This document shows positions 5,803 through 34,956 of a stretch of DNA of 64,000 bases, piece after piece (positions within the stretch are counted from its first letter, which is position 1; each line of letters starts with the position of its first letter). The notes under the pieces are model-generated. The model was not told the origin of the DNA. It worked only from the letters and a program-made list of their open reading frames with translations, and did no database searches. The translations under genes and the position numbers were made by a program. The stretch comes from Candidatus Heimdallarchaeota archaeon (GTDB lineage: Archaea; Asgardarchaeota; Heimdallarchaeia; Heimdallarchaeales; Heimdallarchaeaceae), in assembly GCA_019057375.1 (NCBI GenBank), contig DXJF01000104.1, positions 1 through 64,000 of the forward strand, written 5' to 3'.

Positions 5803-6083
5803 ACAATTGGCACATATTCACAATATTTAAGTCTTTCAGGCCAAAATATTGAAGATTATACTTATAATCTAGAAGAAACAAAACCTATTTTTCCTAATCC
5901 TTGTCTTTTTCATTTTACTGCAAAGCCATTTCCCTTCTAGTAAGGTCGTTCATCCAAGAAGATACCTTATTAGAAGAAACTTACACTTGGGCTCGTTGAA
6001 TCCAACACACCACAGTACTCCATTTTTGAGTATGTTCTTTCATTTTTTGGTAATAAACTTTCCTTTAAAAAGCTGCTTTTCTA

Positions 6084-6386
6084 ATGTCAACCATGTACTA
6101 CAAACTTTACAAAACAAAAACAAAGACTACTGATGTTAGTTATGATGAAAGCTTTTCGGATTTTAACAAAATCTACAAGAAACATGATGTTCAGGTTTTA
6201 GGTGGTGGAACAAATGTTGAAGACCGCCGCGAAATGTATCTCATGACTCTTTACAAGAACAAAACACATTATGAAGAGACTGTCAAAAAACTACGTGATG
6301 ATCCAAAATATATGGAACTCTCCAAAAAGCTTGAAGAAGGTCGAGATAGTATCGAAGTTATCACTCTAGAAAGCGACGAGCATTAA
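6084..6386 (+). CDS. Small dimeric alpha/beta-barrel (NIPSNAP-like) protein
   Basis: 100 aa, beta-alpha-beta-beta-alpha-beta pattern; family assignment is inference. Confidence 0.5.
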   Translation: MSTMYYKLYKTKTKTTDVSYDESFSDFNKIYKKHDVQVLGGGTNVEDRREMYLMTLYKNKTHYEETVKKLRDDPKYMELSKKLEEGRDSIEVITLESDEH

Positions 6387-6498
6387 GAAAGTAACTTAAT
6401 AACAGTAATCTACAGAACAATAAAATTAGAAACAAAGAAAAGAATATTTTCTTTTTTCTTTTTTCTATTCGTTTTTAAGCAAATTGATAACCTTCAAT

Positions 6499-13272: not shown

Positions 13273-13932
13273 CTAGACTATAGTGAAACAAATGACATCA
13301 GTTGGTGCAAAGGGATCGGGAACTGGTTCAGGGAAAAGACCAAGAGGATTCATATAATACTCTGTGACTAAGTTATATGTGCCAGGTTCTAGTTCTCCAG
13401 GTTTGAATAAAGCGCCTACATTAAACCACCATAATGCTTCATCACCATATGCATCTATAAAGAAAAGAGCTGGCTTAATTGGTGTATAGGTCATTTCCAA
13501 TTCAACACCATTTAGATAGATTTTTACAGTCCACCAAGATAGATACTCGAAACATCCTTCATTAATAGTATCATAGGTGAAAACTACTCCAAACCAGTCA
13601 TATAATATATATTGAGCGAATTGAAGACCAAGTTCAGTTACATAAAGTGCTGCGTAAATACCATGAGCATCTTCATAGCGATAAGTTAAACCATCATACC
13701 ATGGAACAATTCTTCCACCATTATATCTTCCATCAAGAACCGCAGGTAATATTTCTCTTTCAATATCGAATTCTGCATTATATACTAAAGTAGTTCCTCC
13801 GTTTAACATTGCATTAAAACTAGCTTGAACGTCTCCATAAGTAACATAGTCATTAGCAGCAGCAACAGGGAGTAATCCAAAGAGAAGAACGCAAAATGCA
13901 CTCAAAGTGATTACAGTTTTTTTCTTTTTCAT
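13273..13932 (-). CDS. Secreted hypothetical protein
   Basis: KKKK + hydrophobic signal peptide (AAA cleavage-like site), GGAGG SD. Confidence 0.75.
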   Translation of the reverse strand: MKKKKTVITLSAFCVLLFGLLPVAAANDYVTYGDVQASFNAMLNGGTTLVYNAEFDIEREILPAVLDGRYNGGRIVPWYDGLTYRYEDAHGIYAALYVTELGLQFAQYILYDWFGVVFTYDTINEGCFEYLSWWTVKIYLNGVELEMTYTPIKPALFFIDAYGDEALWWFNVGALFKPGELEPGTYNLVTEYYMNPLGLFPEPVPDPFAPTDVICFTIV

Positions 13933-13955
13933 TTTTTAACCTCCAAATGAATTAT

Positions 13956-14024
13956 ATGGAACAAAACACGACACATATATGCGTCGCGTTTTGCCACATA
14001 TATGTGTGACAAGAACAGACACAT
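13956..14024 (-). promoter_or_regulatory. Three tandem palindromic operator-like sites (ATGT-N13-NCAY) directly downstream of a TTTTATAT TATA box
   Basis: Sites at 13956-13976, 13979-13999, 14004-14024; CACATATA cores 23 and 25 bp apart. Confidence 0.65.
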
Positions 14025-14077
14025 ATAAAAAGTTTTCTCATAAAATTGTGATTCTATAGAAATAAAATAGAGAAAAA

Positions 14078-14669: not shown

Positions 14670-16601
14670 TTGAGCAAGATGAAAGGAATTTTCGTTAAAG
14701 AGTTAGAAGATATAGAATCACTCATAGATAAAGGAAAGTATAACGTGGCTTTAGAGCATATTGATTCAATATCATCTCAGGAAGCAATTTCTGCAGAGGA
14801 GAAGACAAAATGTACTATTTTTAGATATCGGGTATATTCTGAATTAGCTAAGTATGCTGAAGCTATAAAGCTTGGTGAAAAAGCCTTTGAGGAAAGCCAA
14901 AAACTAAATAATAAACTCCTAATGTTTGATTCACTCGTATATTCTCCTTACATTTACTTTGTTACTGGAGAATATGAATTAAGAAAGGAGAAAGTTAAAC
15001 TTGCTGGTCAAATACTTGAATCAATTGAAGATAAGGAGTCATCGAATTATTTTCTCAGAAGAGCTATATTTCTAACTATGAAAAGTGATAGTTTTGAACA
15101 AACTATAGAAAATCTTGAAGAAAGTATTGAAATCTCTAAGAAATTTGGATTTGATAGAATATTAGTTGATGCATACCATACGCAAGCTTGTACTTATCTT
15201 TGGTCTGGAGGAATCACAAAATCTCTTAAACTAAATCAACAAGCATTAGATCTTGCTGAAGAAATAGATTACTACTGGGGAATCACCGGTACTATGTTTG
15301 CTTTAGCTGTTAACTATTTGCATAAAGGGGAATTAGAACTAGCCCTGGATTATTTCCTACAAACAAAAACGCTAATTGAAGAAGGTGATGACTTATATTT
15401 TATAGCCTGCTTGTATTTGGATCTAGGTTATTTATATTGGTTAAAAAGAGATCTTAAATCCTCACTTGATTATTATAAGAAATCTGTTTCCACTTTTAAA
15501 GAAGCTAAAGTTGTAAGTACACGTCATTTACCATGGACTCTATTCCGAATGAATTTAGTTCTTATTGAAATGGAACAGTATGATGAAGCACTCAAGAATA
15601 TTGAACAGATTGAGCTCTTATTCCTAATGAAAGATACTCCTGTTTTCAAACTATTCTACCATCTTGCAAAAGCTGTTTTTCTTAAAACAAAAACAGATGA
15701 TGATTGTTGGAATGAAGCTACACTTCTACTCGAGGAAGTTGCTGATGAAGAACTTGTTTATCTTGAGTTAAATGGTTTAGTAATCTTTCATTTATGTGAT
15801 GTATATCTAAAGAAAATACAAACTTCAAATGATTTGGATGCATTTGAGAAACTAAAAAATAGGATACAAGAGTTAGCAGAAATGGCTAGAGAGCAAAAAT
15901 CTGTCATTCTGCTTGTTCAATCTCTCTTGTTGCAATCAAAGCTAGAACTAATTGATTTAGACATTGAAAAAAGCCAATCGCTATTAGGAAAAGCACAATC
16001 TATTGCAGAGGAAAAAGGACTTATTAAACTTGCAAAGGTTGTTTCAAATGAATTTGATATTCTCTTAGATCAATTGAGTACTTGGGAAGATATGTCAACG
16101 TATTTACCAAGCTTAGAAGAAAGGTTTGAATTTACTCATATTGAAAATTATCTAAACAGAATGATGAGAGACTATATTATACATGAAAGCATTGTTGATG
16201 AAAAAGAAGCACCAGCATTTTTCTTACTACTGAATAAGGAAGGGGCTATTCTGTTTTCTGAGATATTCAATGAAGTATCTCTGGAAGGTGAATTACTCAA
16301 AGAGATATTATCATCAATTGCCAGATTCAAGACAAGTATATCATTGACTCCTGAAACAATCAAGAGAATGAAATATAAAAATTATACAATTGCAATCAAT
16401 GTTCAAGAAGATCTATTTATAGTTTATACTTTTATAGGAAAATCCTATTATGCGTTACACAAACTCAAATCCCTAATCCAGGAATTTCGCACTTTTACAA
16501 GTGAATGGAATGTGTTTTTTGATAGATTACAGGAGAGTAATGAGTTAACATTCTCAGAAAGGAAACTGTTATCAGAATATGTTGAAAGCGTTTTTCTATA
16601 A
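14670..16601 (+). CDS. TPR-repeat protein with C-terminal longin/roadblock-like domain
   Basis: Multiple TPR-like helical repeats; C-terminal FLLLNKEGAILFS...IVYTFIGKSY region; paralog at 21826-23592. Confidence 0.75.
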   Translation: MSKMKGIFVKELEDIESLIDKGKYNVALEHIDSISSQEAISAEEKTKCTIFRYRVYSELAKYAEAIKLGEKAFEESQKLNNKLLMFDSLVYSPYIYFVTGEYELRKEKVKLAGQILESIEDKESSNYFLRRAIFLTMKSDSFEQTIENLEESIEISKKFGFDRILVDAYHTQACTYLWSGGITKSLKLNQQALDLAEEIDYYWGITGTMFALAVNYLHKGELELALDYFLQTKTLIEEGDDLYFIACLYLDLGYLYWLKRDLKSSLDYYKKSVSTFKEAKVVSTRHLPWTLFRMNLVLIEMEQYDEALKNIEQIELLFLMKDTPVFKLFYHLAKAVFLKTKTDDDCWNEATLLLEEVADEELVYLELNGLVIFHLCDVYLKKIQTSNDLDAFEKLKNRIQELAEMAREQKSVILLVQSLLLQSKLELIDLDIEKSQSLLGKAQSIAEEKGLIKLAKVVSNEFDILLDQLSTWEDMSTYLPSLEERFEFTHIENYLNRMMRDYIIHESIVDEKEAPAFFLLLNKEGAILFSEIFNEVSLEGELLKEILSSIARFKTSISLTPETIKRMKYKNYTIAINVQEDLFIVYTFIGKSYYALHKLKSLIQEFRTFTSEWNVFFDRLQESNELTFSERKLLSEYVESVFL

Positions 16602-21424: not shown

Positions 21425-21829
21425 ATGGTGAACATAATGACTGCTGAAACTGTGGAGTTGAAATTTGATCAAGAAGAGATAGATAAAGCTGAGGAAGAAT
21501 ACAAGAAGCTTCATCTAGATCCTGCTCAACAAGACATGGTTGACTCCATAACAAAAATCATGAATGAACTGGTGCCAATACCTGAAGCAGCTATTAAGGG
21601 ATTCACATGGAAAGTCATGAGTAATTGGCAGAGGATGCGTAGAATTACTATAGCTGAGTTAAATAATAGACCTCTAAGAGATAGAATAGAGGTAACCAAA
21701 GAGATGATTAAGCAAGCAAAGAAATTTTTTGTTAGTCTTCTTTCAGAATCTACACCTGAGCAGAGAGAGATACTGGAAAAAAAGTTTGATACGGTTTTAA
21801 AACAAAGCTCAGAGTTATTGAAAAATTAG
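21425..21829 (+). CDS. Hypothetical helical protein
   Basis: 134-aa ORF filling the gap; stop overlaps the convergent TPR gene. Confidence 0.7.
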   Translation: MVNIMTAETVELKFDQEEIDKAEEEYKKLHLDPAQQDMVDSITKIMNELVPIPEAAIKGFTWKVMSNWQRMRRITIAELNNRPLRDRIEVTKEMIKQAKKFFVSLLSESTPEQREILEKKFDTVLKQSSELLKN

Positions 21830-23592
21830 ACAAAGATTGATTCTAAATAATCAGATAATCTTGTTCTGTCAGACAAACTCAGTTCTTGATTGGAGTTTAT
21901 TTTTGTGCTTAAATCTCCCCAGATTTCTGAAAATGTGCTAAAATCAGTGATAAGCTTCTTTATTTTCTGTACAGCAGAATAAGATTTACCAACAAAAACA
22001 TAACTAAGTAGCATATCTTCACTTTGATAAAGAGCAATACCAAAATTCCTAAATTGAAGACGATGAGAAGTGTTTTTATCAGGTTTTTTTTCTTCTAGAA
22101 AGTCATGTATTGTAGTTATAATCCCCTCAACTAAATCATTTTCTAGAGCAATAACTTTGAAATTATCAGAAAAGACAACATGACCAGTTTTGTCCATAAT
22201 CAAGAAAATATTTGGATCTTCATTTTCATGAGAAACATCTGCAAAATTTTGAGCTTTTTCTAGCATTATTTTTGCTTCTTCAATTTTAAGTTCTATTAGC
22301 GATAAGTGGGATTTGAGCATATAGGTTTCAGCGAGTAGGATTGATGATTTCTGAGTTTCAGCTAATTTATCTAATTGGTCTAGAGTCGCCCTAAGAGATT
22401 CAAATAGAGTTAAATCATTAGTTTCTTTCAATCTTTTTAAATAAAAATCACACAGGTGAAACAAAGCCAAACTGTTCATTTCAATATAGAAGAACTTCTC
22501 TTGAACTACATCTTTCAACATTAGTTCTATTTCACCTTGATTTTCTTCTAATGAATCAGTCTTTAGAATAATAGATTGAGCTAATTTGTAGATACTCATA
22601 AAGGAATATCTTTCTTCGCTTTCATCTTGAAGACTTCTCAATGTTGCTACTATTTCTATTTTTTCTAATATCTGTTTTGCTTCTTCTATCTTACCTAGTT
22701 CTAGATACACTAAAATTAATCTAAAATTAACAGCAGGATAATGTATATGTCCAAGATGTTTTCCTCTTTTTATTTGCTCTATACTCTTATTATAATACTG
22801 GAGAGAAGCAGCTAAATCCCCTTTCTGCCAATAAAAGAATCCCAGATCAGCATAAATAGCTCCTAGCATATAGGGGGCATCAATTTCCTCAGCAATGGAT
22901 AAAGCTTTCAAAGAATATCCCAAAGCTGTATTCAATTCCCCTTTTTGCAAATAAATTGCAGCAATATTAGTAGTACATGCTGCCTGTCCTACAATATTAC
23001 CAATTTTGGTGAAAAGCTTCAAACCTTCATCATAGTATTTACCAGCCTGTGCATATTTGGCAGTCTTCCAGTATGTACTAGAAATAGTAAAAAGTAAACA
23101 AGCTTTTTCATAATCATCTCCGATTTGATCTAAAATAGATAAAGATTGCTTTAGGCGCTCTAAATAGGTTTCTACATCTTCTCCAAGTCTGAATTGTAAT
23201 ACAATAGCTTTTTGTTTCAGATATTCTTTAGTTTCTTGTATTTCTGAATCTTCAAAAACCTTTTTCGCTTGGTGAACCTTCTCAAGAGCTGAATTTAAGA
23301 AACCTAGAATATTTAGAGTACGAGCATAATGTCTAGCTGAATCAAAAATTAGAAACTTATTCCCAAGTTTTACACTTTCATCATATGCTTGTTTAGCATT
23401 TTCTAATGCCTCAGAGAAGGGTTGAATATCAAGAAATATCCTTGTTTTGAGGATTTTTGCTTGAATGATTTCTTCTTCAAGAAGTTCATTTCTTTTCAGA
23501 AGATTATCCAATCGTTTCAAAGCTTCTTGAAATTTACTGGTAACAAATAATTGTTCTATTTCTTTTAACTCAGTAGAAAATACTCCTTTCAT
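21826..23592 (-). CDS. TPR-repeat protein with C-terminal longin/roadblock-like domain (paralog with internal deletion)
   Basis: Aligns end to end with 14670-16601 except for a missing block before the C-terminal domain. Confidence 0.75.
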   Translation of the reverse strand: MKGVFSTELKEIEQLFVTSKFQEALKRLDNLLKRNELLEEEIIQAKILKTRIFLDIQPFSEALENAKQAYDESVKLGNKFLIFDSARHYARTLNILGFLNSALEKVHQAKKVFEDSEIQETKEYLKQKAIVLQFRLGEDVETYLERLKQSLSILDQIGDDYEKACLLFTISSTYWKTAKYAQAGKYYDEGLKLFTKIGNIVGQAACTTNIAAIYLQKGELNTALGYSLKALSIAEEIDAPYMLGAIYADLGFFYWQKGDLAASLQYYNKSIEQIKRGKHLGHIHYPAVNFRLILVYLELGKIEEAKQILEKIEIVATLRSLQDESEERYSFMSIYKLAQSIILKTDSLEENQGEIELMLKDVVQEKFFYIEMNSLALFHLCDFYLKRLKETNDLTLFESLRATLDQLDKLAETQKSSILLAETYMLKSHLSLIELKIEEAKIMLEKAQNFADVSHENEDPNIFLIMDKTGHVVFSDNFKVIALENDLVEGIITTIHDFLEEKKPDKNTSHRLQFRNFGIALYQSEDMLLSYVFVGKSYSAVQKIKKLITDFSTFSEIWGDLSTKINSNQELSLSDRTRLSDYLESIFV

Positions 23593-25898: not shown

Positions 25899-27188
25899 TC
25901 ATCCATAAATTGATGTATCTGCGAATGTTTCAGGATAGTCTTCGTCTTCGAAATCTTCTGGTTTCTGACTTGGTGAAGGTTTCTGATCTGGTAAAGATTT
26001 AGTCTTAGGATATCGACCATGTCTTTCACGATCTTGTTCTCTTTCTTGTTTGTACAAGTAATATCTTCTGATATCTTTCTTCATGAACATCTCAATACGT
26101 CTAATCATATTTCTTTCTTCGTGATCTATTAGAGAGATTGCGACACCAGCTCTTTCCATCCTTGAAGTTCTTCCTATTCTATGAATATAATTTTCGGGAT
26201 TTCCAATAGGTAGATCATAATTGAAGATATGAGAAACATGAGGTATGTCTAATCCTCTTGCTGCAACATCTGTCGCAATAAGACAACTGATTTTACCTTT
26301 TCTAAACTCTCGCATAGAAATTTCTCTTTGTCTTTGTGACATATCTCCTTGAAGTGAACCTATTCTCATATGGATTCTTTTATCATTACGCAGTTTCTGC
26401 TCTAGGTTTGTACCCCATCTTTTGGTATTAACAAAAACAATACTTGATTTTGGCTTTTCTCTTAATAGAATATTAACAAAGGAGTTGTATTTTTTCTTAG
26501 GATCCGGTACTTCATAGTAATATTGCTTGCAAGAACCTACAGTTAGATCATCTCTACTAACATCAATCTCAACAATGTTCTCTTCTAAACTATAATCAAG
26601 CATTATGTCTTTTACTTCTGGTAGCATAGTAGCTGAAAACAGAAGAAATCTAGGGTAGATGTCTTTCATAGCTTCAAATAAAATGTAATTAACATCAGGA
26701 AGGAAGCCCATATCGAGCATACGATCAGCCTCGTCAAGTACTACATATTTTACTTCTTTGAAAGAAATTGCTTTTCTGTTGAATAAATCTATCAGTCTTC
26801 CAGGTGTAGCTACAACAATTTGAGCTCCTGAGCGGATATTTTCTATTTGTCTATTTATGGATACTCCTCCATAAACCTCAACAGCTTTTAATCTTCTATG
26901 TCTATTCAGTTTGGATATTACTGTATAAACTTGTTTACATAATTCTCTAGTAGGAACTAGAATAACTGCTTGAATTTTTCTTAGTGTGGGGTCGAGTTCT
27001 TCGGTAATTGGTATAGCGAAAGCTAATGTCTTTCCTGTACCTGTTTTAGCTTGCGATAAAATATGTGTTTTTTCTCCCTTAAGAATCTCAGGGATAGCTT
27101 TTTCTTGAATTTCTGTTGGGGTATGAATTCCCATTTCTTGTAAAGCTTGTTTTATTTGGTCATTAATCTTGTAATCTTTAAATTTCAT
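25899..27188 (-). CDS. DEAD-box RNA helicase (paralog 2)
   Basis: AKTGTGKT, PTREL, DEAD, SAT, ARGLD, HRIGRTSR. Confidence 0.95.
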   Translation of the reverse strand: MKFKDYKINDQIKQALQEMGIHTPTEIQEKAIPEILKGEKTHILSQAKTGTGKTLAFAIPITEELDPTLRKIQAVILVPTRELCKQVYTVISKLNRHRRLKAVEVYGGVSINRQIENIRSGAQIVVATPGRLIDLFNRKAISFKEVKYVVLDEADRMLDMGFLPDVNYILFEAMKDIYPRFLLFSATMLPEVKDIMLDYSLEENIVEIDVSRDDLTVGSCKQYYYEVPDPKKKYNSFVNILLREKPKSSIVFVNTKRWGTNLEQKLRNDKRIHMRIGSLQGDMSQRQREISMREFRKGKISCLIATDVAARGLDIPHVSHIFNYDLPIGNPENYIHRIGRTSRMERAGVAISLIDHEERNMIRRIEMFMKKDIRRYYLYKQEREQDRERHGRYPKTKSLPDQKPSPSQKPEDFEDEDYPETFADTSIYG

Positions 27189-27301
27189 TAGTATCATTCG
27201 TGTATCTTTTTAATCAAACTAGGTATCATTGTGACGAATGTTTTCGCTTCAAATTTTTTCATAGTTTTAATTGCTGAAAAAGATAGGTGTTCTATTTTCT
27301 T

Positions 27302-27349
27302 ATCTTCCTCAACTCTAAGCTACTTAATTTTTCTAGCTTTAAAAGACTT
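27302..27349 (-). promoter_or_regulatory. Promoter and putative transcript 5' end of DEAD-box gene 2
   Basis: AAGTCTTTTAAAGC-N21-AGTTGAGGAAGAT, same as 7848-7895. Confidence 0.7.
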
Positions 27350-27440
27350 TGTTATTGCAACTTTAAGAGCTAAACCTTCTAATAATGAAATTTACCAGAA
27401 TGGAGAAATTTAGGAGAAAGAAAGAGGTCACTACATAATA

Positions 27441-27471
27441 CTTATAATTTGTACAGTATTCCAAGTACAAA
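27441..27471 (+). promoter_or_regulatory. TATA box (CTTATAAT) followed by palindrome TTTGTAC-N10-GTACAAA upstream of paralog 4
   Basis: Perfect 7-bp inverted repeat at 27448-27471. Confidence 0.55.
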
Positions 27472-27485
27472 AAGTTGAATGAAGA

Positions 27486-27848
27486 ATGCCAGATATACCA
27501 AATAAAGAAAAACAAGAGATCAGAATATTGGCAGAGGATTTCAGTTGTTTAATTGCAACCCTTTCATTCAAAAAAGGTTCTTATATCTTCTATGAAGTTT
27601 TCAAGTCTCTCTATAGTAGATCAGCTAGATGGAGATATTGTTTGATTTGTGGTAATATAGATTTACCTAAGGATTTTATCCATAAGGATCAAAACTACCC
27701 CCAAGTATCTTGTCACAAAATCCAGTCACTAATACCAACTTCTTGGATGAAACTAAGAGATCTCTTCATTAAAGGTAATTATAAGAAACTCCTTAAAGCA
27801 ATGGGGGTTCAAAATGTAGAAAAAAAGACAACCAGTGTCTCTAATTAA
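27486..27848 (+). CDS. CxxC-type putative zinc-finger protein, paralog 4 (divergent second ligand pair)
   Basis: MPDIP...ARWRYCLICG...SCHK...IPTSWMKLRDLF. Confidence 0.75.
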   Translation: MPDIPNKEKQEIRILAEDFSCLIATLSFKKGSYIFYEVFKSLYSRSARWRYCLICGNIDLPKDFIHKDQNYPQVSCHKIQSLIPTSWMKLRDLFIKGNYKKLLKAMGVQNVEKKTTSVSN

Positions 27849-27875
27849 ATAAAGTGTGAGAATATTCCTTTAGAT

Positions 27876-28352
27876 TTAGGATGTCTCCCCAATTTTTATT
27901 GCTTCAGGCAATTTGTTTTCTTCTGCAACTGCGAATATTTCTCGTATAATTGGTATCTGACCTGGTTTGTCTGTTACTCCAGCATTTTCTAGAGCTCGTA
28001 TATGCTTCTTTGACATAAAGAAGTCCCGCAGTTTATACCATGATGTAGTAATTAAAACAGGAAAACGATTCGCACCTAAAGTACATTCATGGATTCTCTC
28101 TTTTAATTCAGATTTCTTCTCTTCTGAATACTTATCACTACCAAGCTCTCCATCATCAATCATCAACTCGGTGGGTTCAATAATCCCACACTTAAGACAG
28201 AATTTCCACCTGGCAGATCTAATATACAGTGCTTCAAAAGTTTCTGAATAAACTAATAGCCCTTCATTGAAGGGAGATACCCATAATCCCATTGCATAGC
28301 GTCTTGCAATTGATTTTATAAATGATTTTTCAGCATTAGATATTTTTGGCAT
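27876..28352 (-). CDS. CxxC-HxC putative zinc-finger protein, paralog 5
   Basis: ARWKFCLKCG...HEC...FPVLITTSWYKLRDFF. Confidence 0.8.
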   Translation of the reverse strand: MPKISNAEKSFIKSIARRYAMGLWVSPFNEGLLVYSETFEALYIRSARWKFCLKCGIIEPTELMIDDGELGSDKYSEEKKSELKERIHECTLGANRFPVLITTSWYKLRDFFMSKKHIRALENAGVTDKPGQIPIIREIFAVAEENKLPEAIKIGETS

Positions 28353-28443
28353 ACTACACCCCTTGCCAATATGATTGAATCCATACCGACATATTAAGAT
28401 ATCTCTACAACTCTAAGCTGAAAAAAATTGAAATATATTACAA

Positions 28444-28827
28444 CTAGACTTGAAGCAAACTACCTATGAGGAACAAAATTGCTACAAGTGTTTTAATTAC
28501 GGGACACAACTTCATAGGAATTACTGGAACTCTTGCACCTGTAAAGGATGAAAGAATAGCCATTATTACAAGCATTGCAGAAGAAAACCAGAAAACAATC
28601 TGAGGGATAAGTGTAGTTATATTTCCGAAAATAGTTACAAAGACTACAAGTGTTCCAATAAAGATGAGAGTTATTCCTTCAGCTATCCATTCCATTTTAA
28701 TAATATGCTTATTATCTTTAGATATTTCACCAAATCCTTTAACTATTGATTTAGTTGGAAAGATGTGGGCGATACCCCAAACAATTATCAAACCTGATCC
28801 TATGTAGAGAAGTATGGAATTTATCAA
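28444..28827 (-). CDS. Hypothetical 4-TM membrane protein
   Basis: Four hydrophobic segments, WGIAHIFPT motif. Confidence 0.75.
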   Translation of the reverse strand: MINSILLYIGSGLIIVWGIAHIFPTKSIVKGFGEISKDNKHIIKMEWIAEGITLIFIGTLVVFVTIFGNITTLIPQIVFWFSSAMLVIMAILSSFTGARVPVIPMKLCPVIKTLVAILFLIGSLLQV

Positions 28828-28963
28828 GATTAATCACTTGAATTGGTAGTAGATTTACATTAATAAAAGATTAATGTCTTTTCCTTCTCTTTTTCTTAAG
28901 ACAGTATTAAAATTCAAAAAACATAAAAAAAAATGAAATAAGGACTAATATACAACATGATTC

Positions 28964-29113
28964 TTAAAATGACTGAGATACAGCAGATAAGGAGAGCAAT
29001 CCAATTACGATTAAGACACATATAGGGATAGCATAAGCTAGAAACAGGCCAACATAGTAAATTGCTTTTTCCAGTATAGCTTTTCTTCTTATCTGACTAA
29101 TATTTGAAATCAT
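28964..29113 (-). CDS. 49-aa single-TM microprotein, cassette A (MISNISQIRRKAILEKAIYYVGLFLAYAIPICVLIVIGLLSLSAVSQSF)
   Basis: GAGGTG SD before ATG; same length as and alignable with 30584-30733. Confidence 0.7.
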   Translation of the reverse strand: MISNISQIRRKAILEKAIYYVGLFLAYAIPICVLIVIGLLSLSAVSQSF

Positions 29114-29191
29114 TTTTATTTCACCTCTTTTGTAATCAGCTCCTTAATACTCCACCAGAGGAAGATGGTTATTTACTGATCTTGAATAGGT

Positions 29192-29305
29192 ATCAGGAGA
29201 GCCAGATGAAAACTTACAGCACACGAATATTCATCCAGCTCAGATCCTGATCCGTAGTAGACAAAGGGTCTGTTGTAGTGAGTGTTTCAGCAAGAAACAA
29301 TCAGC
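29192..29305 (-). ncRNA. Putative structured leader/ncRNA, cassette A: 23-nt conserved hairpin + ~30-nt linker + ~19-bp stem-loop
   Basis: GCTGATTGTTTCTTGCTGAAACA at 29283-29305 identical to 30875-30897; ATCAGGA/TCCTGAT, GAGC/GCTC, GATGAA/TTCATC stems at 29192-29251. Confidence 0.5.
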
Positions 29306-29396
29306 GTGTTAGAGATCAACCAGATTAAATGTTGATCAAGATATTATTGTAAGTGCAAGAAGAAGAAGAAAAGTGATTCATTCACTCCTCTAAATC

Positions 29397-29549
29397 TTAT
29401 ATATATCTTACTGCTACTAGAGCTCCTCCAAAAACTACACCAAGAGCGTATAGAAATACTGGTAGAGCGAATCTGAGAAATCTATATAGATATACTATTG
29501 GTCTTGAAATTTTGAGTTTATAAAACCACACAGGTCGTCTGTAATTCAT
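29397..29549 (-). CDS. 50-aa aromatic/basic membrane microprotein (MNYRRPVWFYKLKISRPIVYLYRFLRFALPVFLYALGVVFGGALVAVRYI)
   Basis: GGAGGTG SD before ATG; C-terminal TM helix. Confidence 0.65.
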   Translation of the reverse strand: MNYRRPVWFYKLKISRPIVYLYRFLRFALPVFLYALGVVFGGALVAVRYI

Positions 29550-29580
29550 TCCTTTTCACCTCCAAATCAGTTATAGAAAA

Positions 29581-29621
29581 AGGGAGAGCTTCAGCTTACC
29601 CTGGAAGAGGGTATTGCTGAA
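29581..29621 (-). promoter_or_regulatory. Switchable hairpin over the stop codon of the basic peptide, cassette A (attenuator-like)
   Basis: TTCAGC-AA-TACCCT-CTTCC-AGGGTA-A-GCTGAA; alternative AGGG(TA)AGC-TGAA-GCT(CT)CCCT followed by T-run. Confidence 0.5.
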
Positions 29622-29742
29622 AAGCTAAACCTAAACGAGATTTTGATCTTAGGGCGCGACGAGCTCTCTTGAACTGCTTTAACTCCTTTTGGAGTGCCTT
29701 AACCTTTTGGTCCAACAAGTTTGAAACTTCATCATACTTCAT
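29596..29742 (-). CDS. 48-aa Arg/Lys-rich coiled-coil microprotein, cassette A (MKYDEVSNLLDQKVKALQKELKQFKRARRALRSKSRLGLAFQQYPLPG)
   Basis: AAGGTGA SD; 24/48 identical to 31829-31975 without gaps. Confidence 0.8.
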   Translation of the reverse strand: MKYDEVSNLLDQKVKALQKELKQFKRARRALRSKSRLGLAFQQYPLPG

Positions 29743-29768
29743 TTTTTTCACCTTGTGATTTCTTTCAC

Positions 29769-29862
29769 ATGTAGGACTTGCTGCGACATCCTATATAAAG
29801 GAGTTTGAGTGGGAAATTGTTGTCACAAAGAGAAATGTGAATGTCGGACTTAATGCGACATC
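29769..29862 (-). promoter_or_regulatory. Cassette A promoter: TATA (CTTTATATAG, 29791-29800) with two copies of a 21-22 bp operator-like palindrome
   Basis: ATGTAGGACTTGCTGCGACATC (29769-29790) and ATGTCGGACTTAATGCGACATC (29841-29862). Confidence 0.65.
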
Positions 29863-30030
29863 ATAAACATATGTGCAAGGATGCACACACACGTAATTCA
29901 CAGATTTAAAGGGCTAAATAGTAGATATGAAGTATTTCAGCTTTGCGGCAAAAATTACCTATTGTGTTAAAAAGATGTAGTCTTTTGGACAACTATTTTG
30001 ATTAGCAGAACAAAAAAAGAGATCATAAAA

Positions 30031-30477
30031 CTACCTGATTCGATCAGTGGAATCAGCTTTAGATTTAGCCTTAGAGGTGGAAGAGGAGACAATCTCTGAA
30101 ACTTCAGGATAAGTAGTAACTGTAACTGCTTCAACATCCCTCGCGATGTCTGGTTCTACACCGATCTTCTGAAGTGCTTTGACATACTTATCTGTTAAGA
30201 AGAAATCTGCCATTTCAAGCCAACTAGTGGTTACTAAAACAGGAAATCTATTAAAATCTAATGCACATTTATGAGTATCTTCAGTTAAATCTTGTATTGT
30301 ATCAATAGTTCCACATTTCAAACATATTCTCAAACGAGAAGATTTTTTGTATAAATCATTCATTGCTTCTTGATACAAATGTAAGCCTTGATCAAGCGGA
30401 GCATCCCATAGATCAAGAGCAAAGCGTCTTGCTCGGGAGCGAATTACTTTCTTTTTTGCGTTAGACATATCAGCCAT
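30031..30477 (-). CDS. CxxC-HxC putative zinc-finger protein, paralog 6
   Basis: SRLRICLKCG...HKC...FPVLVTTSWLEMADFF. Confidence 0.8.
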   Translation of the reverse strand: MADMSNAKKKVIRSRARRFALDLWDAPLDQGLHLYQEAMNDLYKKSSRLRICLKCGTIDTIQDLTEDTHKCALDFNRFPVLVTTSWLEMADFFLTDKYVKALQKIGVEPDIARDVEAVTVTTYPEVSEIVSSSTSKAKSKADSTDRIR

Positions 30478-30489
30478 TGTGCATCCCTC

Positions 30490-30520
30490 ATGTATTATTA
30501 AGTCCTACATCATTATAAAG
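30490..30520 (-). promoter_or_regulatory. Paralog 6 promoter: TATA (CTTTATAATG) followed by the cassette A operator
   Basis: ATGTAGGACTTAATAATACAT on the minus strand, matching 29769 and 29841 sites. Confidence 0.65.
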
Positions 30521-30583
30521 TTTGGCCCTATGGCACAAATTTCCTAATCTTGGTTTATGTTTTAAATTAAAAAAAAAGAGAGT

Positions 30584-30733
30584 TTAAGATAAGTTTGCTA
30601 GAGATAGAAATGCTACTACAAACAAAGCAACTGAAAACACTATGAGTATTGTATACCCCAAGAGTGTTCCTGCGTTTGTTCTTGTTTTTTCTATCCACAT
30701 TTTTCTTTTAGTGTTATTCACGTTTTTGGCCAT
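30584..30733 (-). CDS. 49-aa single-TM microprotein, cassette B (MAKNVNNTKRKMWIEKTRTNAGTLLGYTILIVFSVALFVVAFLSLANLS)
   Basis: GAGGTGG SD; homolog of 28964-29113. Confidence 0.7.
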   Translation of the reverse strand: MAKNVNNTKRKMWIEKTRTNAGTLLGYTILIVFSVALFVVAFLSLANLS

Positions 30734-30779
30734 TTATTCCACCTCGGTTTTTTTATGCAGATTTCTCCTCATAGTTTTA

Positions 30780-30897
30780 GGATTAGAAGGACCAAACTTA
30801 CTGGCTAGCAAGGGGGATAGCTGTTCAGTCTGGTCTTCCCGATCCCATCCTGGTGATGAAATCTGACTAATGAATGTTTCAGCAAGAAACAATCAGC
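30780..30897 (-). ncRNA. Putative structured leader/ncRNA, cassette B
   Basis: Same 23-nt element (30875-30897), 29-nt linker, GGAT/ATCC + GGAA/TTCT + GACCAGACT/AGTTTGGTC stem at 30780-30845. Confidence 0.5.
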
Positions 30898-30975
30898 TTG
30901 ATTTTTTTTAATTTAATTTTTGTAAAAAAATTCGAAAGAAGAAAATGGTTTTGAACATTTTCTTCCCCGTTACAA

Positions 30976-31392
30976 TTATCTAACTACATATATGTCAGCA
31001 TTTGTTTTAGCAACTCTAACTAAAACATATTCTACACCATCAGTTATTGATATTCTAGTTAATTCCTCAGCCACATCATCAACTGCATCTAATCTAACTA
31101 AATCAACAACAGCTGTGTTACCTAAAGCTGCTCTAACCACATATACATCTGCATCATCAACCTCATTAGTTCTGAATACTTCAATTGCTGCATTATCAAC
31201 TGTAGCAATTACCACATAATCAGAGTAATTTTCAGTTGCAGCTACAACATTATTGTAAGTTAAATTTATACTTGCTAGAGATACGATCAAAGCTACGATC
31301 ATTGGTAGAACTACTAATAATATTCTAGTTAGGTTAATTTCAGGACTAGTAAAATTTAGTCGAGCTAATAATTCTTTAGCAGATCTTTTCAT
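30976..31392 (-). CDS. 138-aa single-TM protein with six 12-13-residue beta-type repeats
   Basis: AGGAGGTGA SD; TM ~24-42; repeats at residues 62-138 each end in Arg. Confidence 0.8.
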   Translation of the reverse strand: MKRSAKELLARLNFTSPEINLTRILLVVLPMIVALIVSLASINLTYNNVVAATENYSDYVVIATVDNAAIEVFRTNEVDDADVYVVRAALGNTAVVDLVRLDAVDDVAEELTRISITDGVEYVLVRVAKTNADIYVVR

Positions 31393-31459
31393 TCTTTTTC
31401 ACCTCCTAGAATTTTTCTTTTTCTCCTGAATCTTTTTCAAGTAATTGCAAAAAATTAAT

Positions 31460-31476
31460 GAGCCCTTCATGGGCTC
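31460..31476 (-). terminator. Hairpin GAGCCC-ATGAA-GGGCTC followed by a T-rich run
   Basis: Perfect 6-bp GC-rich stem, then ATTAATTTTTT on the minus strand. Confidence 0.35.
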
Positions 31477-31530
31477 GAATTTGATCGTTCAGAGAGAGAG
31501 TTGTTTAAACAGTGTATCCACCTTCACTAA

Positions 31531-31791
31531 TTAATAGTAAAGCGACCCAAACAGGAGTAATTTTTGAGCAAGTGCTTTGTCCTTAGCCTTTCTCACTTTG
31601 TTCTCTATGCTTTCCTTGGAAATCTCTTTATCAGGTCGGGATTTTTTGTTATCGCGATCAGATAACCCTTCCACAAGTTGCTTGATGAACGAATAATAAA
31701 GCTCCTCATCAATGAATTCAAAATCATACAAAACTTTCATATTGTCAATTACTATTTGGCGCACTGTTTCTACTTGAACTTTGGATGCCAT
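31531..31791 (-). CDS. 86-aa hypothetical protein, cassette B
   Basis: GAGGTGA SD; follows the basic peptide in operon order. Confidence 0.7.
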   Translation of the reverse strand: MASKVQVETVRQIVIDNMKVLYDFEFIDEELYYSFIKQLVEGLSDRDNKKSRPDKEISKESIENKVRKAKDKALAQKLLLFGSLYY

Positions 31792-31814
31792 TCATTTCAC
31801 CTCTATTTGAAAAT

Positions 31815-31854
31815 GGTAAGACTCAAGCTTACCCGTAAATCAGGTATTGCCTGA
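31815..31854 (-). promoter_or_regulatory. Switchable hairpin over the stop codon of the basic peptide, cassette B
   Basis: TCAGGC-AA-TACCTG-ATTTA-CGGGTA-A-GCTTGA (G-U pairs); alternative GGTAAG-N7-CTTACC followed by ATTTT. Confidence 0.5.
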
Positions 31855-31975
31855 TTGGAAATCTAGAACGAGCTTTTGCTCTTCTAGTGCGACGAGCTCT
31901 TTTGAGCTTATTCAACTCCTTGCGGAGTGCCTTAATCTTTCGATCCAACATTAAACTTACTTCTTGTCCATACAT
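31829..31975 (-). CDS. 48-aa Arg/Lys-rich coiled-coil microprotein, cassette B (MYGQEVSLMLDRKIKALRKELNKLKRARRTRRAKARSRFPIRQYLIYG)
   Basis: GAGGTG SD; homolog of 29596-29742. Confidence 0.8.
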   Translation of the reverse strand: MYGQEVSLMLDRKIKALRKELNKLKRARRTRRAKARSRFPIRQYLIYG

Positions 31976-31986
31976 TTCTTTACACC

Positions 31987-32175
31987 TCAAATGTTTGCAA
32001 ATCTCCTTAGGTTCAGGTTAGAGTAGAAGCTAATAGTTGCAGTCAAGTATTGCTCATAGATATCCAATTTCTTGTCTGAATATCTGTTAGATAGAGTTTT
32101 CATGAGTTTATTGAGATCCTCGTAAAGTCTTCGAACCTCGGGATCCAGCAGTTTTTTTATTTCGTTTGTATTCAT
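31987..32175 (-). CDS. 62-aa helical hypothetical protein, first gene of cassette B
   Basis: GAGG SD 8 nt before ATG; stop overlaps the SD of the next ORF. Confidence 0.65.
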   Translation of the reverse strand: MNTNEIKKLLDPEVRRLYEDLNKLMKTLSNRYSDKKLDIYEQYLTATISFYSNLNLRRFANI

Positions 32176-32201
32176 TTTTCATGCCTCAGTATTTTTGTCA
32201 T

Positions 32202-32463
32202 TATTACTGCATTATGCAGCAACTTATTTAAGTGTCGTTATGCAGTAATATATTGCCGCATTGTACAGCAATAAAATAATATTGCTAAGAAACGACAAAA
32301 TAACTTTATGGGGGATTTTAATGTTTAAACACCATTCTATACCCTATAATGTATGTCATAAATAGAGGTAAATATTTCCGTTTAAGTTGTTTTTTCTGCA
32401 GTAATAAAATAACTTTAGGAAATTTTTACCTTGAGATATACATATATATACATTACTGCATAA
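32202..32463. promoter_or_regulatory. Divergent promoter region with repeated TATTRCTGCA-NNN-TGCAGYAATA sites and half-sites
   Basis: Sites at 32202-32224 and 32251-32273; half-sites 32241-32250, 32397-32406, 32451-32460. Confidence 0.6.
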
Positions 32464-32496
32464 ATGTAACATAGAAAAACATTAAGAGGTAAAATC

Positions 32497-32922
32497 TTGC
32501 CTGTAATTAAAGATGCTGAAAAAACACAAATCAAATCCAGAGCCCGTAGATATGCTCAAGATCTAGCTGATGCTCCCTTAAGTTCTGGTTTAGAATTATA
32601 TAGTGAAACTATCTCAAAGCTCCATGATCGTTCTTCCCGATTGCGAATTTGTCTAAAGTGTGGAACTATTGATAAAAAAGAGAGTCTTACTAATAGTAAT
32701 CATCATTGTGCATCTGGCATTGATAAACTCCCTGTTATCATTCTTACAAACTGGGTCATTTTGAAAAATTTCTTTCTCACTGATGAATACACTAAAGCGT
32801 TGCAAAAGCTTGGGGTTGAACCCATCACTGCTAAAACTGTTCCAAGTACAACTTCTTCCAAAGAAGAGAGTGCAGACACCAAAAAACAAATGGAAGAAAC
32901 ATTAGCTGATACAGCCAAGTAG
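32497..32922 (+). CDS. CxxC-HxC putative zinc-finger protein, paralog 7
   Basis: TTG start after GAGGT SD; SRLRICLKCG...HHC...LPVIILTNWVILKNFF; closest to paralog 6. Confidence 0.8.
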   Translation: MPVIKDAEKTQIKSRARRYAQDLADAPLSSGLELYSETISKLHDRSSRLRICLKCGTIDKKESLTNSNHHCASGIDKLPVIILTNWVILKNFFLTDEYTKALQKLGVEPITAKTVPSTTSSKEESADTKKQMEETLADTAK

Positions 32923-32940
32923 ATAAAAGAATTTTCTATT

Positions 32941-33183
32941 TTATAATTTCAGTTTTTCCTTCAGTTCATCATTTGAAGGTTCAACAAGAATCGAGCCATC
33001 TTCAAAAACAATTGTTAGGACTCTGGCTCTGCCATTGTTTAATTCCAATGTTTTTCTTTTTCCGTCTGTATCTGAATCTATGTCAATCTATTTTTAGTGA
33101 ATATTATTCTCATCTAGAAACTTCTTAGATCTTTTGCAATCCCCACACCAATCAGTTCCGTATATTATTTCTATTCTAGTCAT
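32941..33183 (-). pseudogene. Mycoredoxin/NrdH-like glutaredoxin with two in-frame stops
   Basis: YGTDWCGDCKRSKKFL...IH*K*IDID...TIVFEDGSILVEPSNDELKEKL; TAA 33094-33096, TAG 33088-33090. Confidence 0.8.
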
Positions 33184-33288
33184 CTTGAAAAGTCTTCTAA
33201 AAAACACGCATTTAAGGATATTGCATTTATATTAAAAAAATGTACAATTAATTACTTTTTTATACACTTATCGTCCACGCACGATTAA

Positions 33289-34956
33289 GTGAAAAAATGC
33301 ATTAGGAGAAGCGCGTTATTGTTTAACAATGTTATTGTGGCTCAACAAATTGAAGATATACCATTTGAAAATATTCGCTCAGTTAAAGGTGAGATGATTA
33401 TTTCAGAAGACTTTCCAAGTTATCTAATCGATGAATCCAAGATAAGCGGAGGGCATGCTGAATACTTATTTTTCCCAAATACTGAAGAGGAAATAATCTC
33501 GCTCATTAAAAAGATGAAGGAGGAGGAGCTTATGATCACAATATCAGCTGCACGAACAGGAATTGTCGGTAGCGCAGTTCCTTTTGGTGGAGCTGTTCTT
33601 TCTTTAGAGAGGATGGATGGGGTCATTGGCCTAGGTTATGATGAAGAGGTTAAGAAATGGTTTCTAAGAGTGCAACCAGCGATTTCTTTGGCTGAAATAA
33701 ATCACATAGTAAAATTGAAAAAACTTGAACCTGATCAAAGTATTCCTCAAGAAGGGAATTGGGTTGAGAAGTTTGAAAAAGAACATACACATTATTATCC
33801 TGTAGATCCTACTGAAATGACTGCATCAATTGGTGGTACTATTGGAGCAAATGCTAGTGGCGCACGCTCTTTCAAATATGGTTCCACAAGAGAGTGGATA
33901 AGAAGAATTCGGGTAATTATAGGTGCAGGAGAAGTATTGGTCATCCCTAGAGGAAAATACAAGGCAAAAGATGGAAAATTCATTGTAAAAACCTCTAAAG
34001 CAGACTATGAATTAAAATTACCAACTTATAAAATGCCTGGAGCAAAGAATGCTGCAGGACTATATACCAAAAAAGATATGGATTTGATTGATCTTTTTAT
34101 TGGTTCAGAAGGAGTATTCGGTGTGATATCTGAAGCTGATGTTTGGCTGAAAGATCATACACCCCAAATGTCCAATGTAGCGTTTTTCAAAAATGAAAAC
34201 GATGCTTTAGACTTCGTAACTAAACTTAGAGCAAGTGAAAAAATAAAACCAGAATTTATTGAATTTTTTGAAGACCATGCTCTCACCTTATTAAGAAACA
34301 AACAAAAAGAAGACCCTAAGTTTGTGGATATGCCAATAATAGCTGAAGATATAACAACAGCAATTTCTTTTGATCTACCTTACTCTGAGGAAACCCTAAA
34401 TGAATATTTTAGTGAAATTTCCATCATGTTAGAAGAATGTAATTCCTCTTTGAGCAACACCTGGAGTGCATACGAAGACAGGGAAGTAGCACGGATTAAA
34501 CACTTTAGACATGCAGTTCCTGAAATTGTAAACAATATCATTGCTGAGCGTAAAAAAGAATATCCTGAGATTCATAAGCTAGGAACAGACATGTCCGTTG
34601 AAGACAAGTACTTGAAAGAGATAATGAAGTTCTATTATGATACTCTCAAAGAAGTAGGATTAGAGTATGTAATGTGGGGTCATATTGGTGATAATCATGT
34701 TCATGTTAATATTCTCCCACGAGATATTAATGATTTAGAATTAGGAAAGCAAATCTACAAAAAATTTGCAAAGAAAGCTGTTCAGTTTGGGGGATCAGTT
34801 TCTGCAGAGCATGGAATTGGAAAAATCAAACACGAATATCTTCAAATCATGTATGGGGAAGAAGGAGTTCTTCAAATGAGAGAAATTAAGTTCTCACTAG
34901 ATCCAGAATGTGTTTTTAATTGTGGTAATATTTTTGGTAGAGGTGCTAAAAGTTGA
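33289..34956 (+). CDS. FAD-binding oxidoreductase, D-lactate dehydrogenase/GlcD family (start uncertain)
   Basis: ARTGIVGSAVP, ASIGGTIGANASG, IGSEGVFG, GHIGDNHVHVN, SAEHGIGKIK motifs. Confidence 0.85.
   Translation: MKKCIRRSALLFNNVIVAQQIEDIPFENIRSVKGEMIISEDFPSYLIDESKISGGHAEYLFFPNTEEEIISLIKKMKEEELMITISAARTGIVGSAVPFGGAVLSLERMDGVIGLGYDEEVKKWFLRVQPAISLAEINHIVKLKKLEPDQSIPQEGNWVEKFEKEHTHYYPVDPTEMTASIGGTIGANASGARSFKYGSTREWIRRIRVIIGAGEVLVIPRGKYKAKDGKFIVKTSKADYELKLPTYKMPGAKNAAGLYTKKDMDLIDLFIGSEGVFGVISEADVWLKDHTPQMSNVAFFKNENDALDFVTKLRASEKIKPEFIEFFEDHALTLLRNKQKEDPKFVDMPIIAEDITTAISFDLPYSEETLNEYFSEISIMLEECNSSLSNTWSAYEDREVARIKHFRHAVPEIVNNIIAERKKEYPEIHKLGTDMSVEDKYLKEIMKFYYDTLKEVGLEYVMWGHIGDNHVHVNILPRDINDLELGKQIYKKFAKKAVQFGGSVSAEHGIGKIKHEYLQIMYGEEGVLQMREIKFSLDPECVFNCGNIFGRGAKS

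Follow-up and report, generated by a model that had tools for sequence, protein, structure and literature searches.

An undescribed island of zinc-protein genes and microprotein cassettes confined to one genus of Heimdallarchaeaceae

The DNA analysed here is a stretch of 64,000 nucleotides from Candidatus Heimdallarchaeota archaeon (GenBank assembly GCA_019057375.1, contig DXJF01000104.1, positions 1 to 64,000), referred to as the window. The source assembly has 3.47 Mb in 159 contigs, and the window is contig C54 in our numbering. It contains two tandem cassettes of microprotein genes, cassette A (genes A1 to A3) and cassette B (genes B0 to B4), which lie among paralogous genes for a zinc protein. 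This system is conserved and undescribed. The island is chromosomal, vertically inherited and confined to one genus of Heimdallarchaeaceae, and it is not a mobile element. As a whole, the sequence comparisons give about an even chance to the reading developed below, in which this genus-specific, vertically inherited island would consist of operons controlled by the zinc proteins, with expression graded by hairpins and U tracts.

Conservation, selection and distribution of the island

A preliminary description of this DNA had placed small open reading frames (ORFs), almost all with GAGG-type ribosome sites, on the minus strand. ORF calling bore out all of them at the claimed sizes, as nine small cassette and zinc-protein genes between 28964 and 32175 (Table 1), and GAGG/AGGTG sites stand 6-10 nt before the ATG in 9/9 of them. 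The two cassettes are diverged relatives, as had been proposed. A1 and B1 are 52% identical as proteins (E 2.6e-8) and 76% identical as DNA over 127 nt. An identical 23-mer within a 33-nt stretch occurs exactly twice in the genome, once in each cassette (29283-29305 and 30875-30897), and the two neighbouring zinc proteins, paralogs 6 and 7, share 53% identity. Gene conversion behind the high DNA identity of the peptide genes was considered and rejected: the paralogs within the genome reach the 76% just given, and orthologues of the closest species differ, by inspection, at few positions. The first and last modules had been described as conserved and the middle as swapped; this applies strongly to A1-B1 and weakly to A3-B4 (37-41% to each other's orthologues), and A2 is unrelated to B2 and B3. 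Paralog 6 was indeed found upstream of cassette A and paralog 7 divergent from cassette B. A2, A3 and B4 (49-50 amino acids (aa), isoelectric point (pI) 9.5-10.7) each have a single hydrophobic helix at the C-terminal end. The membrane products of the cassettes number four. The core B0-B1-B2 is soluble and is the oldest and best conserved part.

Conserved synteny elsewhere had been set as a test of the description. By tBLASTn, and by BLASTP on the loci found, the small ORFs were recovered from at least 13 related genomes, with their order unchanged. The ratio of nonsynonymous to synonymous rates (dN/dS) was calculated by the Nei-Gojobori method against four close species, with genome G006 as a more distant comparison. 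It was 0.08-0.25 for B0, 0.06-0.19 for B2, 0.14-0.20 for B4 and 0.08-0.15 for paralog 6. A1, A2, A3 and B1 gave 0.23-0.42 against G006, and A2 ranged from 0.23 to 0.55 overall. The ORFs go beyond chance, because they keep the same order in so many genomes and their dN/dS is well under 1. Thus the small ORFs are genuine protein genes, mostly under purifying selection. For B3, dN/dS was 0.55-0.69 and identity 39-91% among close species, and no match was found within the loci of G001 and G023; B3 is fast-evolving and behaves like variable cargo.

A1 and B1 encode the basic peptide. Entropy at codon positions 1, 2 and 3 was 0.65, 0.46 and 0.81 in 13 basic-peptide genes, which is coding-like. Across the genus the peptide has 9 invariant and 6 near-invariant positions, with E5, L10, L17, E20, L21, R28 and R29 among the invariant residues. 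In A1 and B1, hydrophobic residues in 3-4-3-4 spacing (L10, I/V14, L17, L21, L24) stand ahead of a K/R-rich stretch. The central 60 nt of the gene are near-invariant across the genus, third positions included (window 31863-31928, minus strand, inside B1, and the same part of A1).

The preliminary description could not match the system to a described one, and Pfam, NCBIfam, PHROG, PADLOC and Rfam also gave no match. Scans of all products against the four protein collections returned only sub-threshold coiled-coil or compositional matches, such as Synaptobrevin for B4 (E 0.023) and DUF1192 for 2/14 basic peptides. PADLOC defence models had 0 matches for 10 proteins at E <= 0.01, PHROG had none under E 0.007, and Rfam covariance models had 0 matches at E <= 1 over 27000-33500. 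The exact sequences of 8/10 products are present in a public protein collection, unnamed or as 'hypothetical'; this collection lacks A2 and the 48-aa form of B1. The AlphaFold model of B2 (pLDDT 60, low-confidence helices) was too poor for a fold search, and an ESM Atlas feature search with B2 gave no usable match.

The zinc protein was detected in 24/24 sampled genomes of the genus and in 0/16 genomes from other genera of the order. The basic peptide was found in 20/24 genomes of the genus, weakly and in a divergent form in one sister genus and in 0/53 genomes elsewhere in the class. It matched 55 clusters among 5.8 billion, all those with a name being from Heimdallarchaeota. The range of B2 equals that of the basic peptide, with more distant paralogs inside the genus in addition. 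An FAD-linked oxidase/ETF operon flanks the island in every locus that is long enough; in the seven loci that extend sufficiently far in the opposite direction, a DEAD-box helicase gene forms the second flank.

Archaeal viruses often carry small orphan ORFs and zinc-finger proteins. This counts for a relic of an integrated virus or plasmid that retained its orphan and zinc-finger genes, as does a weak, sub-threshold match of paralog 7 to the terminase small subunit of Pfam (E 0.0019, 19 bits against a cut-off of 27). However, the island occupies the same chromosomal site genus-wide, its divergence is like that of the flanking genes, and its GC content (~0.34, with 0.31-0.39 across the window) shows no shift against the surroundings. 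The preliminary description had seen no integrase or replication gene nearby, and neither these nor a capsid gene were seen among the flanking ORFs. Among IMG/VR contigs, neither the zinc protein nor B2 nor the basic peptide had a relative, and a proviral relic, raised there as the outcome if homologs were confined to viruses, is highly improbable given these data together with the lack of PHROG matches.

Species whose flanking genes are ~68-70% identical to those of the window carry a single cassette, in which a zinc gene closest to paralog 6 is divergent from B0-B1-B2. In one of them, G005, a membrane peptide of ~51 aa and then a large TPR protein follow B0-B1-B2. This TPR protein of 768 aa lies directly 3' of the cassette in the same direction and may belong to the ancestral unit. 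Because related species carry a single cassette, the two-cassette form is read as a duplication; cassettes B and A appear to have arisen from it inside this genus, in the clade to which the window belongs. The ancestor was probably one cassette, with a zinc gene divergent from B0-B1-B2 and a membrane peptide.

Palindromic promoter sites and the zinc-protein family

The zinc-protein gene is present in seven paralogs, all located between 12.5 and 33 kb on contig C54. In the family alignment, C52 and C55 are invariant and H69 and C71 near-invariant. A profile search of 1.84 billion representative proteins returned 23 matches only. The AlphaFold model of paralog 6 (pLDDT 81) comprises two long helices, a zinc knuckle, three short helices and a disordered tail. 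A predicted complex of two zinc-protein cores scored 0.02 without controls, a value that we take as no evidence on dimerisation in either direction. Large TPR (MalT-like) proteins lie scattered among the zinc paralogs (window 14670-16601, plus strand, and 21826-23592, minus strand).

Promoter regions were aligned across nine species. Every zinc-gene or cassette promoter has a palindrome directly downstream of the TATA box. At A1, 8/9 sequences have CCTTTATATAGG, then GATGTCG, a variable spacer and ACAT, with a second palindrome ~55 nt further upstream; the ninth A1-type sequence is the second G001 copy, which follows a B0-like gene and is without such a promoter. At paralog 6, a TATA-like box, ATGTA-N11-TACAT and then the ribosome site are found in 9/9. 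The half-sites of the A1 and paralog-6 palindromes are invariant and their spacers drift. ATGTM-N11-KACAT occurs 13 times in the genome, and 3 occurrences fall in this 21.5-kb stretch (0.08 expected), the excess being seen at the 11-nt spacing only.

Between B0 and paralog 7, a TATA-like box (32223-32232, minus strand) abuts the palindrome TTGCTGCAT/AATGCAGTAA at 32204-32222, and further TTACTGCA half-sites lie on the paralog-7 side (32238-32248, 32397-32403 and 32453-32463). This site is kept in the four closest species, and other palindromes are present in more distant clades. TTRCTGCA palindromes are common to paralog 7 and B0 in the window's clade. At the B0 position, the palindromes are of the ATGTCAT type in G001 and G023 and read ATGTCGG...CCTACAT in the single-cassette species; in the latter, the zinc protein closest to paralog 6 thus pairs with an ATGTCG-type site at B0. 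At the other five paralogs, a palindrome of the (A)TGT...ACA(T) kind comes after a TATA box. We noticed the same operator style outside the zinc genes: three ATGTGTC/GACACAT-type palindromes stand in a row behind a TATA-like box (window 13940-14030, minus strand) and precede a 219-aa ORF of no known family (13273-13932).

A site directly downstream of TATA is the usual position of archaeal repressors, which there block the recruitment of RNA polymerase. The zinc proteins are the obvious candidates for the palindromes, because one zinc gene recurrently pairs with one operator type, and they are probably autoregulating repressors. We lean slightly towards the C2HC zinc proteins being a new family of operator-binding transcription factors. 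A zinc protein occupying the site between TATA and the transcription start would block its own promoter and that of the adjacent cassette, and the paralogs and their operators would have diverged together. A bZIP-like role of the basic peptide at these operators was rejected on geometry. Its zipper-like heptads precede the basic stretch, where the basic region of bZIP proteins is N-terminal, and the operator half-sites are 11 bp apart, where bZIP half-sites abut.

Small zinc-finger regulators are known from Archaea, as in the case of Brz of Halobacterium salinarum (PMC2253796). Like Brz and the TATA-proximal archaeal repressors, the proteins described here are small, carry a zinc motif and are encoded beside their putative targets; palindromes lie between TATA and start, and the layout suggests autoregulation. 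They differ in having no sequence or fold similarity to any known regulator; their predicted C2HC site sits in a helical domain of 110 aa, and seven clustered paralogs appear with diverging operators. The arrangement also resembles the phage-shock locus (pspF divergent from pspABCDE), where small soluble and small membrane proteins are encoded in an operon next to the regulator gene or divergent from it. There is, however, no homology; 1/14 basic peptides matched PspA/IM30 (E 0.0032), which is read as a generic coiled-coil match.

The stop-codon hairpin, other RNA elements and the basic peptide

A hairpin across the stop codon of the basic-peptide gene is real. Its covariation was analysed in 24 non-identical gene copies. 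A two-part stem encloses the stop codon, with up to 6 outer pairs, up to 6 inner pairs and a loop of 5-6 nt. Compensatory changes occur in 8/12 stem pairs, and RNAalifold gives the same stem. Paired cells amount to 81%, compared with 26-47% when the partner is slid by 1-3 columns, and the covariation score was reached by 0/500 shuffles. Even the stop codon takes part: a change from UAA to UGA is matched by U to C on the opposite arm. The last seven residues of the peptide vary except for the final Gly, whose GG pairs in the stem. Because these residues vary while the pairing is kept, selection acts on the RNA at the 3' end of the gene. A U run follows within 0-15 nt of the hairpin in most copies. 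The downstream frames are short and not conserved, and for this reason neither frameshifting at the hairpin nor read-through of the stop codon was retained as a reading.

Hairpin-plus-T elements are also present 3' of B2, B3, A2 and paralog 6. A terminator scan of 4.2 kb found 6 elements, 4 of them on the coding strand, compared with 1.8 +/- 1.5 in shuffles. The stop-codon hairpin therefore looks like one in a series of intercistronic terminator or stabiliser hairpins, and the cassettes, judged by these elements, read as genes separated by partial stops.

The preliminary description had called the system RNA-switched. Of this, the covarying stop-codon hairpin stood, but the second, mutually exclusive hairpin proved to be weak and clade-specific. 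With the 5' arm blocked, an alternative hairpin between the Gly and stop codons and a pyrimidine tract forms in about half of the copies, in differing shapes, and the constrained fold has -3 to -12 kcal/mol compared with -10 to -25 kcal/mol unconstrained. In the window's clade, the 3' arm (Gly codon, stop codon and GCUG) can pair with a CUCUCCC/CUUACC tract before the U run, and in A-type copies the GGAGG of the next gene is a further possible partner of this tract. In the single-cassette clade no alternative hairpin was found; there the stop-codon hairpin is followed by U7-8 and the next ribosome site. A four-segment, ermC-like layout is possible in some species and is not a conserved feature.

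These pairings bear on a leader-peptide switch, in which the position of the ribosome at the end of the basic peptide would select either the stop-codon hairpin or an alternative, terminator-like or anti-Shine-Dalgarno structure and so gate the membrane-peptide genes. The four-segment layout of the window's clade, with its alternative pairings, and the location of the 5' arm within the ORF fit such a switch. The variable occurrence and shape of the alternative hairpin speak against it, however, and so does the protein-level conservation of the peptide, which one would not usually see in a pure leader. Neither A1 nor B1 contains an evident run of regulatory codons, and we know of no ribosome-dependent attenuator in Archaea, for which a literature search likewise found nothing. 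We regard this switch as unlikely. The locus can also be compared with bacterial attenuators (trp/pheL; ermC/cat). As in those systems, a short ORF (A1 first, B1 second in its operon) has a 3' end that forms the 5' arm of a hairpin, followed by a U tract and the next ribosome site, with alternative pairings in some copies; unlike them, the peptide here is conserved and would probably act in trans, the alternative hairpin is not conserved, regulatory codons are absent and the host is an archaeon.

A second RNA element named in the preliminary description, the 23-nt element with its stem-loop, is conserved, being found in seven leaders of A3 and B4, but it is dispensable in some species. These leaders are ~165-190 nt long, and the 23-mer and a GGATCRGGA box are conserved in all seven. 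RNAalifold predicted 26 pairs in the leaders, 6 of them with double changes, all in the long stem-loop, which shows compensatory differences between A- and B-type leaders. In G023 the 23-mer is mostly kept and the pairing of its small hairpin is lost, so that here the sequence rather than the fold may be conserved. In G013 the A3 leader is replaced by unrelated sequence, an apparent insertion (locus L013, G013:C41 ~5830-6400).

Folded leaders of this length before A3 and B4 recall the mRNAs of bacterial type I toxins such as tisB, hok and zorO, in which a long folded leader likewise precedes the gene of a hydrophobic peptide of ~50 aa. The 49-50-aa membrane peptides could accordingly be pictured as type-I-toxin- or holin-like products silenced by the leaders and by zinc repressors, in a stress, dormancy or defence module. 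Their small size and basic, membrane-bound character agree with this picture, and so does the variation of cargo between conserved ends. It is nevertheless quite improbable. The locus stands at one fixed chromosomal site and is inherited vertically under purifying selection, PADLOC gave no match, and no antisense RNA gene was seen, for which the search was with Rfam only. The core B0-B1-B2 is soluble, and B4 is kept without a leader in two species. The membrane peptides also differ from type I toxins in their single vertical locus, in having a basic N-terminus with a C-terminal membrane helix and in having no known antisense RNA.

Relatives of the microprotein genes elsewhere in the genome bear on the role of the basic peptide. 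A third basic-peptide gene lies on contig C150 (~116960-117320, minus strand; central 100 nt 82% identical). On its 3' side stand a basic ORF of 34 codons, a terminator-like hairpin with T7 and a gene for an MFS transporter, and its divergent neighbour encodes a 211-aa protein judged winged-helix-like by eye. The promoter region there has TTCTCAA...TTGAGAA palindromes, unlike the operators of the zinc genes. A more distant copy is the first gene of an operon on C145 that also encodes an acidic protein of 78 aa and a coiled-coil protein of 455 aa, the latter with a similar C-terminus. On C14 (24587-28044), two tandem B2-like paralogs of ~87 aa each adjoin a coiled-coil protein (259 aa) and two further proteins (297 and 235 aa) similar to the winged-helix-like one of C150. 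Because the microproteins repeatedly adjoin putative DNA-binding proteins, a regulatory or nucleic-acid-related role is suggested for B0, B1 and B2, rather than a purely membrane-directed one. The basic peptide most likely acts in trans on a nucleic acid or a regulator and would not be a mere leader peptide, since it is conserved as a protein and its relatives adjoin predicted DNA-binding proteins. A membrane or surface output of the cassettes is speculation.

In the model that we prefer for the RNA elements, the hairpin and U tract would serve as an intra-operon attenuator or as a 3'-end stabiliser. B0 and the basic zipper peptide would then stay abundant and the distal membrane peptides scarce. 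The last eight codons contain the 5' arm, so that a ribosome translating them has to melt the hairpin; read-through or downstream translation would in this way be coupled to peptide synthesis. The leader of ~165-190 nt would be an additional gate for the final gene of each cassette. We place this combination of attenuation or stabilisation, ribosome melting and leader gating somewhat below even. A broader combination would join two features undescribed in Archaea: a new family of zinc-dependent transcription factors that co-diversified with its operators within one genus, and a stop-codon hairpin melted by the ribosome as it completes the peptide, which would set read-through into, or translation of, the membrane-peptide genes further on. 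The peptide might in addition bind hairpins of its own operon RNA, in the manner of lambda N and boxB. With N and boxB, and with other RNA-binding peptides that have an arginine-rich motif, the locus shares an Arg-rich segment in a tiny protein; the mRNA of this protein contains short conserved hairpins (loops of 4-5 nt), as does the beginning of the downstream leader. The locus differs in that the hairpins have no loop consensus between them and that the peptide has a zipper, which N is without. The resemblance to N and boxB is purely an analogy, and the broader combination is distinctly unlikely.

Several points weigh against the explanation by zinc repressors and graded hairpins. Fold searches with the paralog-6 model found nothing above background: the best Foldseek match in the PDB had E 1.4, ESM Atlas fold comparison gave TM <= 0.33, and the best VIA-wide match, with Z 5.1, was to a designed protein. 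The modelled zinc protein is thus without a recognisable DNA-binding fold. Its link to the operators is drawn from adjacency and co-variation only, and another factor could bind the sites. On the RNA side, archaeal termination uses U tracts and the factor aCPSF1/FttA, not hairpins, and three B1-type copies have no U run after the hairpin; for these two reasons attenuation is not the sole reading. The leader is missing before an intact B4 in G018 and G013. Finally, A1 and B1 show few synonymous changes among close species. Two small hairpins lie inside the basic-peptide coding region (alignment columns 98-111 and 118-131), both near-invariant with 1-2 compensatory pairs each, and a third one is present in B1-type copies only; these internal hairpins have AAAA/GCAA loops. 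Together with the scarce synonymous change they mean that the RNA may have a role outside the favoured model.

Feature coordinates, neighbouring genes and implications

The features of the island are collected in Table 1. Of the loci compared, only that of G018 contained a match to the 127-aa membrane protein 3' of A3. Where flanking ORFs matched Pfam, they proved to be ordinary chromosomal genes (MFS transporter, TPR proteins, methyltransferase, racemase, M20 peptidase, sulfotransferase). A glutaredoxin-like gene next to paralog 7 (32938-33207, minus strand) is interrupted in frame by TAA and TAG, two stops at the positions of Tyr and Trp in most relatives (...PYKWIDID...). Other disruptions of this gene are found in G011 and G013, and it is intact in G001, G016, G020 and G023; it seems to be decaying in the window's clade.

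Table 1. Features of the island and their positions in the window.
Feature	Position	Strand	Evidence
Paralog 7, zinc protein, 141 aa, CxxC...HxC; divergent from cassette B	32497-32922	+	ORF
Control region between paralog 7 and cassette B	32176-32496	both directions	coordinates; interspecies comparison
B0, 62-aa helical protein, N-terminus resembling that of the basic peptide	31987-32175	-	ORF, homologues, dN/dS
B1, 48-aa basic peptide, leucine-zipper-like heptads then Arg/Lys-rich stretch, pI 11.7	31829-31975	-	
Hairpin over last codons and stop codon of B1, then short U run	31823-31854	-	covariation
B2, 86-aa three-helix protein, best conserved product	31531-31791	-	dN/dS, alignment, low-confidence helical model
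Terminator-like hairpin and T run 3' of B2	31460-31476	-	terminator scan
B3, 138 aa, N-terminal membrane anchor and acidic 13-residue repeats, variable cargo	30976-31392	-	
Strong terminator-like hairpin (13 pairs) and T7 3' of B3	30935-30968	-	terminator scan
Structured leader of B4, starting with the 23-nt element (30875-30897)	30734-30897	-	
B4, 49-aa peptide, basic N-terminus, membrane helix at C-terminal end	30584-30733	-	
Paralog 6 promoter: TATA-like box (30511-30521), then palindrome ATGTA-N11-TACAT (30490-30510)	30490-30521	-	
Paralog 6, zinc protein, 148 aa	30031-30477	-	ORF, AlphaFold model, dN/dS
Cassette A promoter: TATA (29790-29801), candidate operator ATGTCG-N9-CTACAT (29769-29789) directly downstream	29769-29861	-	
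Second candidate operator copy of cassette A, upstream of TATA	29841-29861	-	
A1, 48-aa basic zipper peptide, pI 10.5	29596-29742	-	
Hairpin over last codons and stop codon of A1, then CUCUCCCUUUUUC	29588-29625	-	covariation
A2, 50-aa basic membrane peptide	29397-29549	-	
Terminator-like hairpin and T/C run 3' of A2	29367-29391	-	terminator scan
Structured leader of A3, starting with the 23-nt element (29283-29305)	29114-29305	-	
A3, 49-aa peptide, layout like B4	28964-29113	-	
127-aa multi-pass membrane protein 3' of A3, variable cargo	28444-28827	-	ORF, locus comparison
Paralog 5, zinc protein, closing the island on the helicase side with paralog 4	27876-28352	-	
Paralog 4, zinc protein, closing the island on the helicase side with paralog 5	27486-27848	+	

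Archaea of the Heimdall group are the closest known prokaryotic relatives of eukaryotes, and next to nothing is known of their gene regulation and of what their lineage-specific small proteins do. The reach of the present system is limited to the one genus that carries it. Within this genus the locus offers an orphan zinc-protein family with readable, paralog-specific operator sites, together with microproteins under selection. With the covarying stop-codon hairpin one could learn whether Archaea possess translation-coupled control of transcription or translation.

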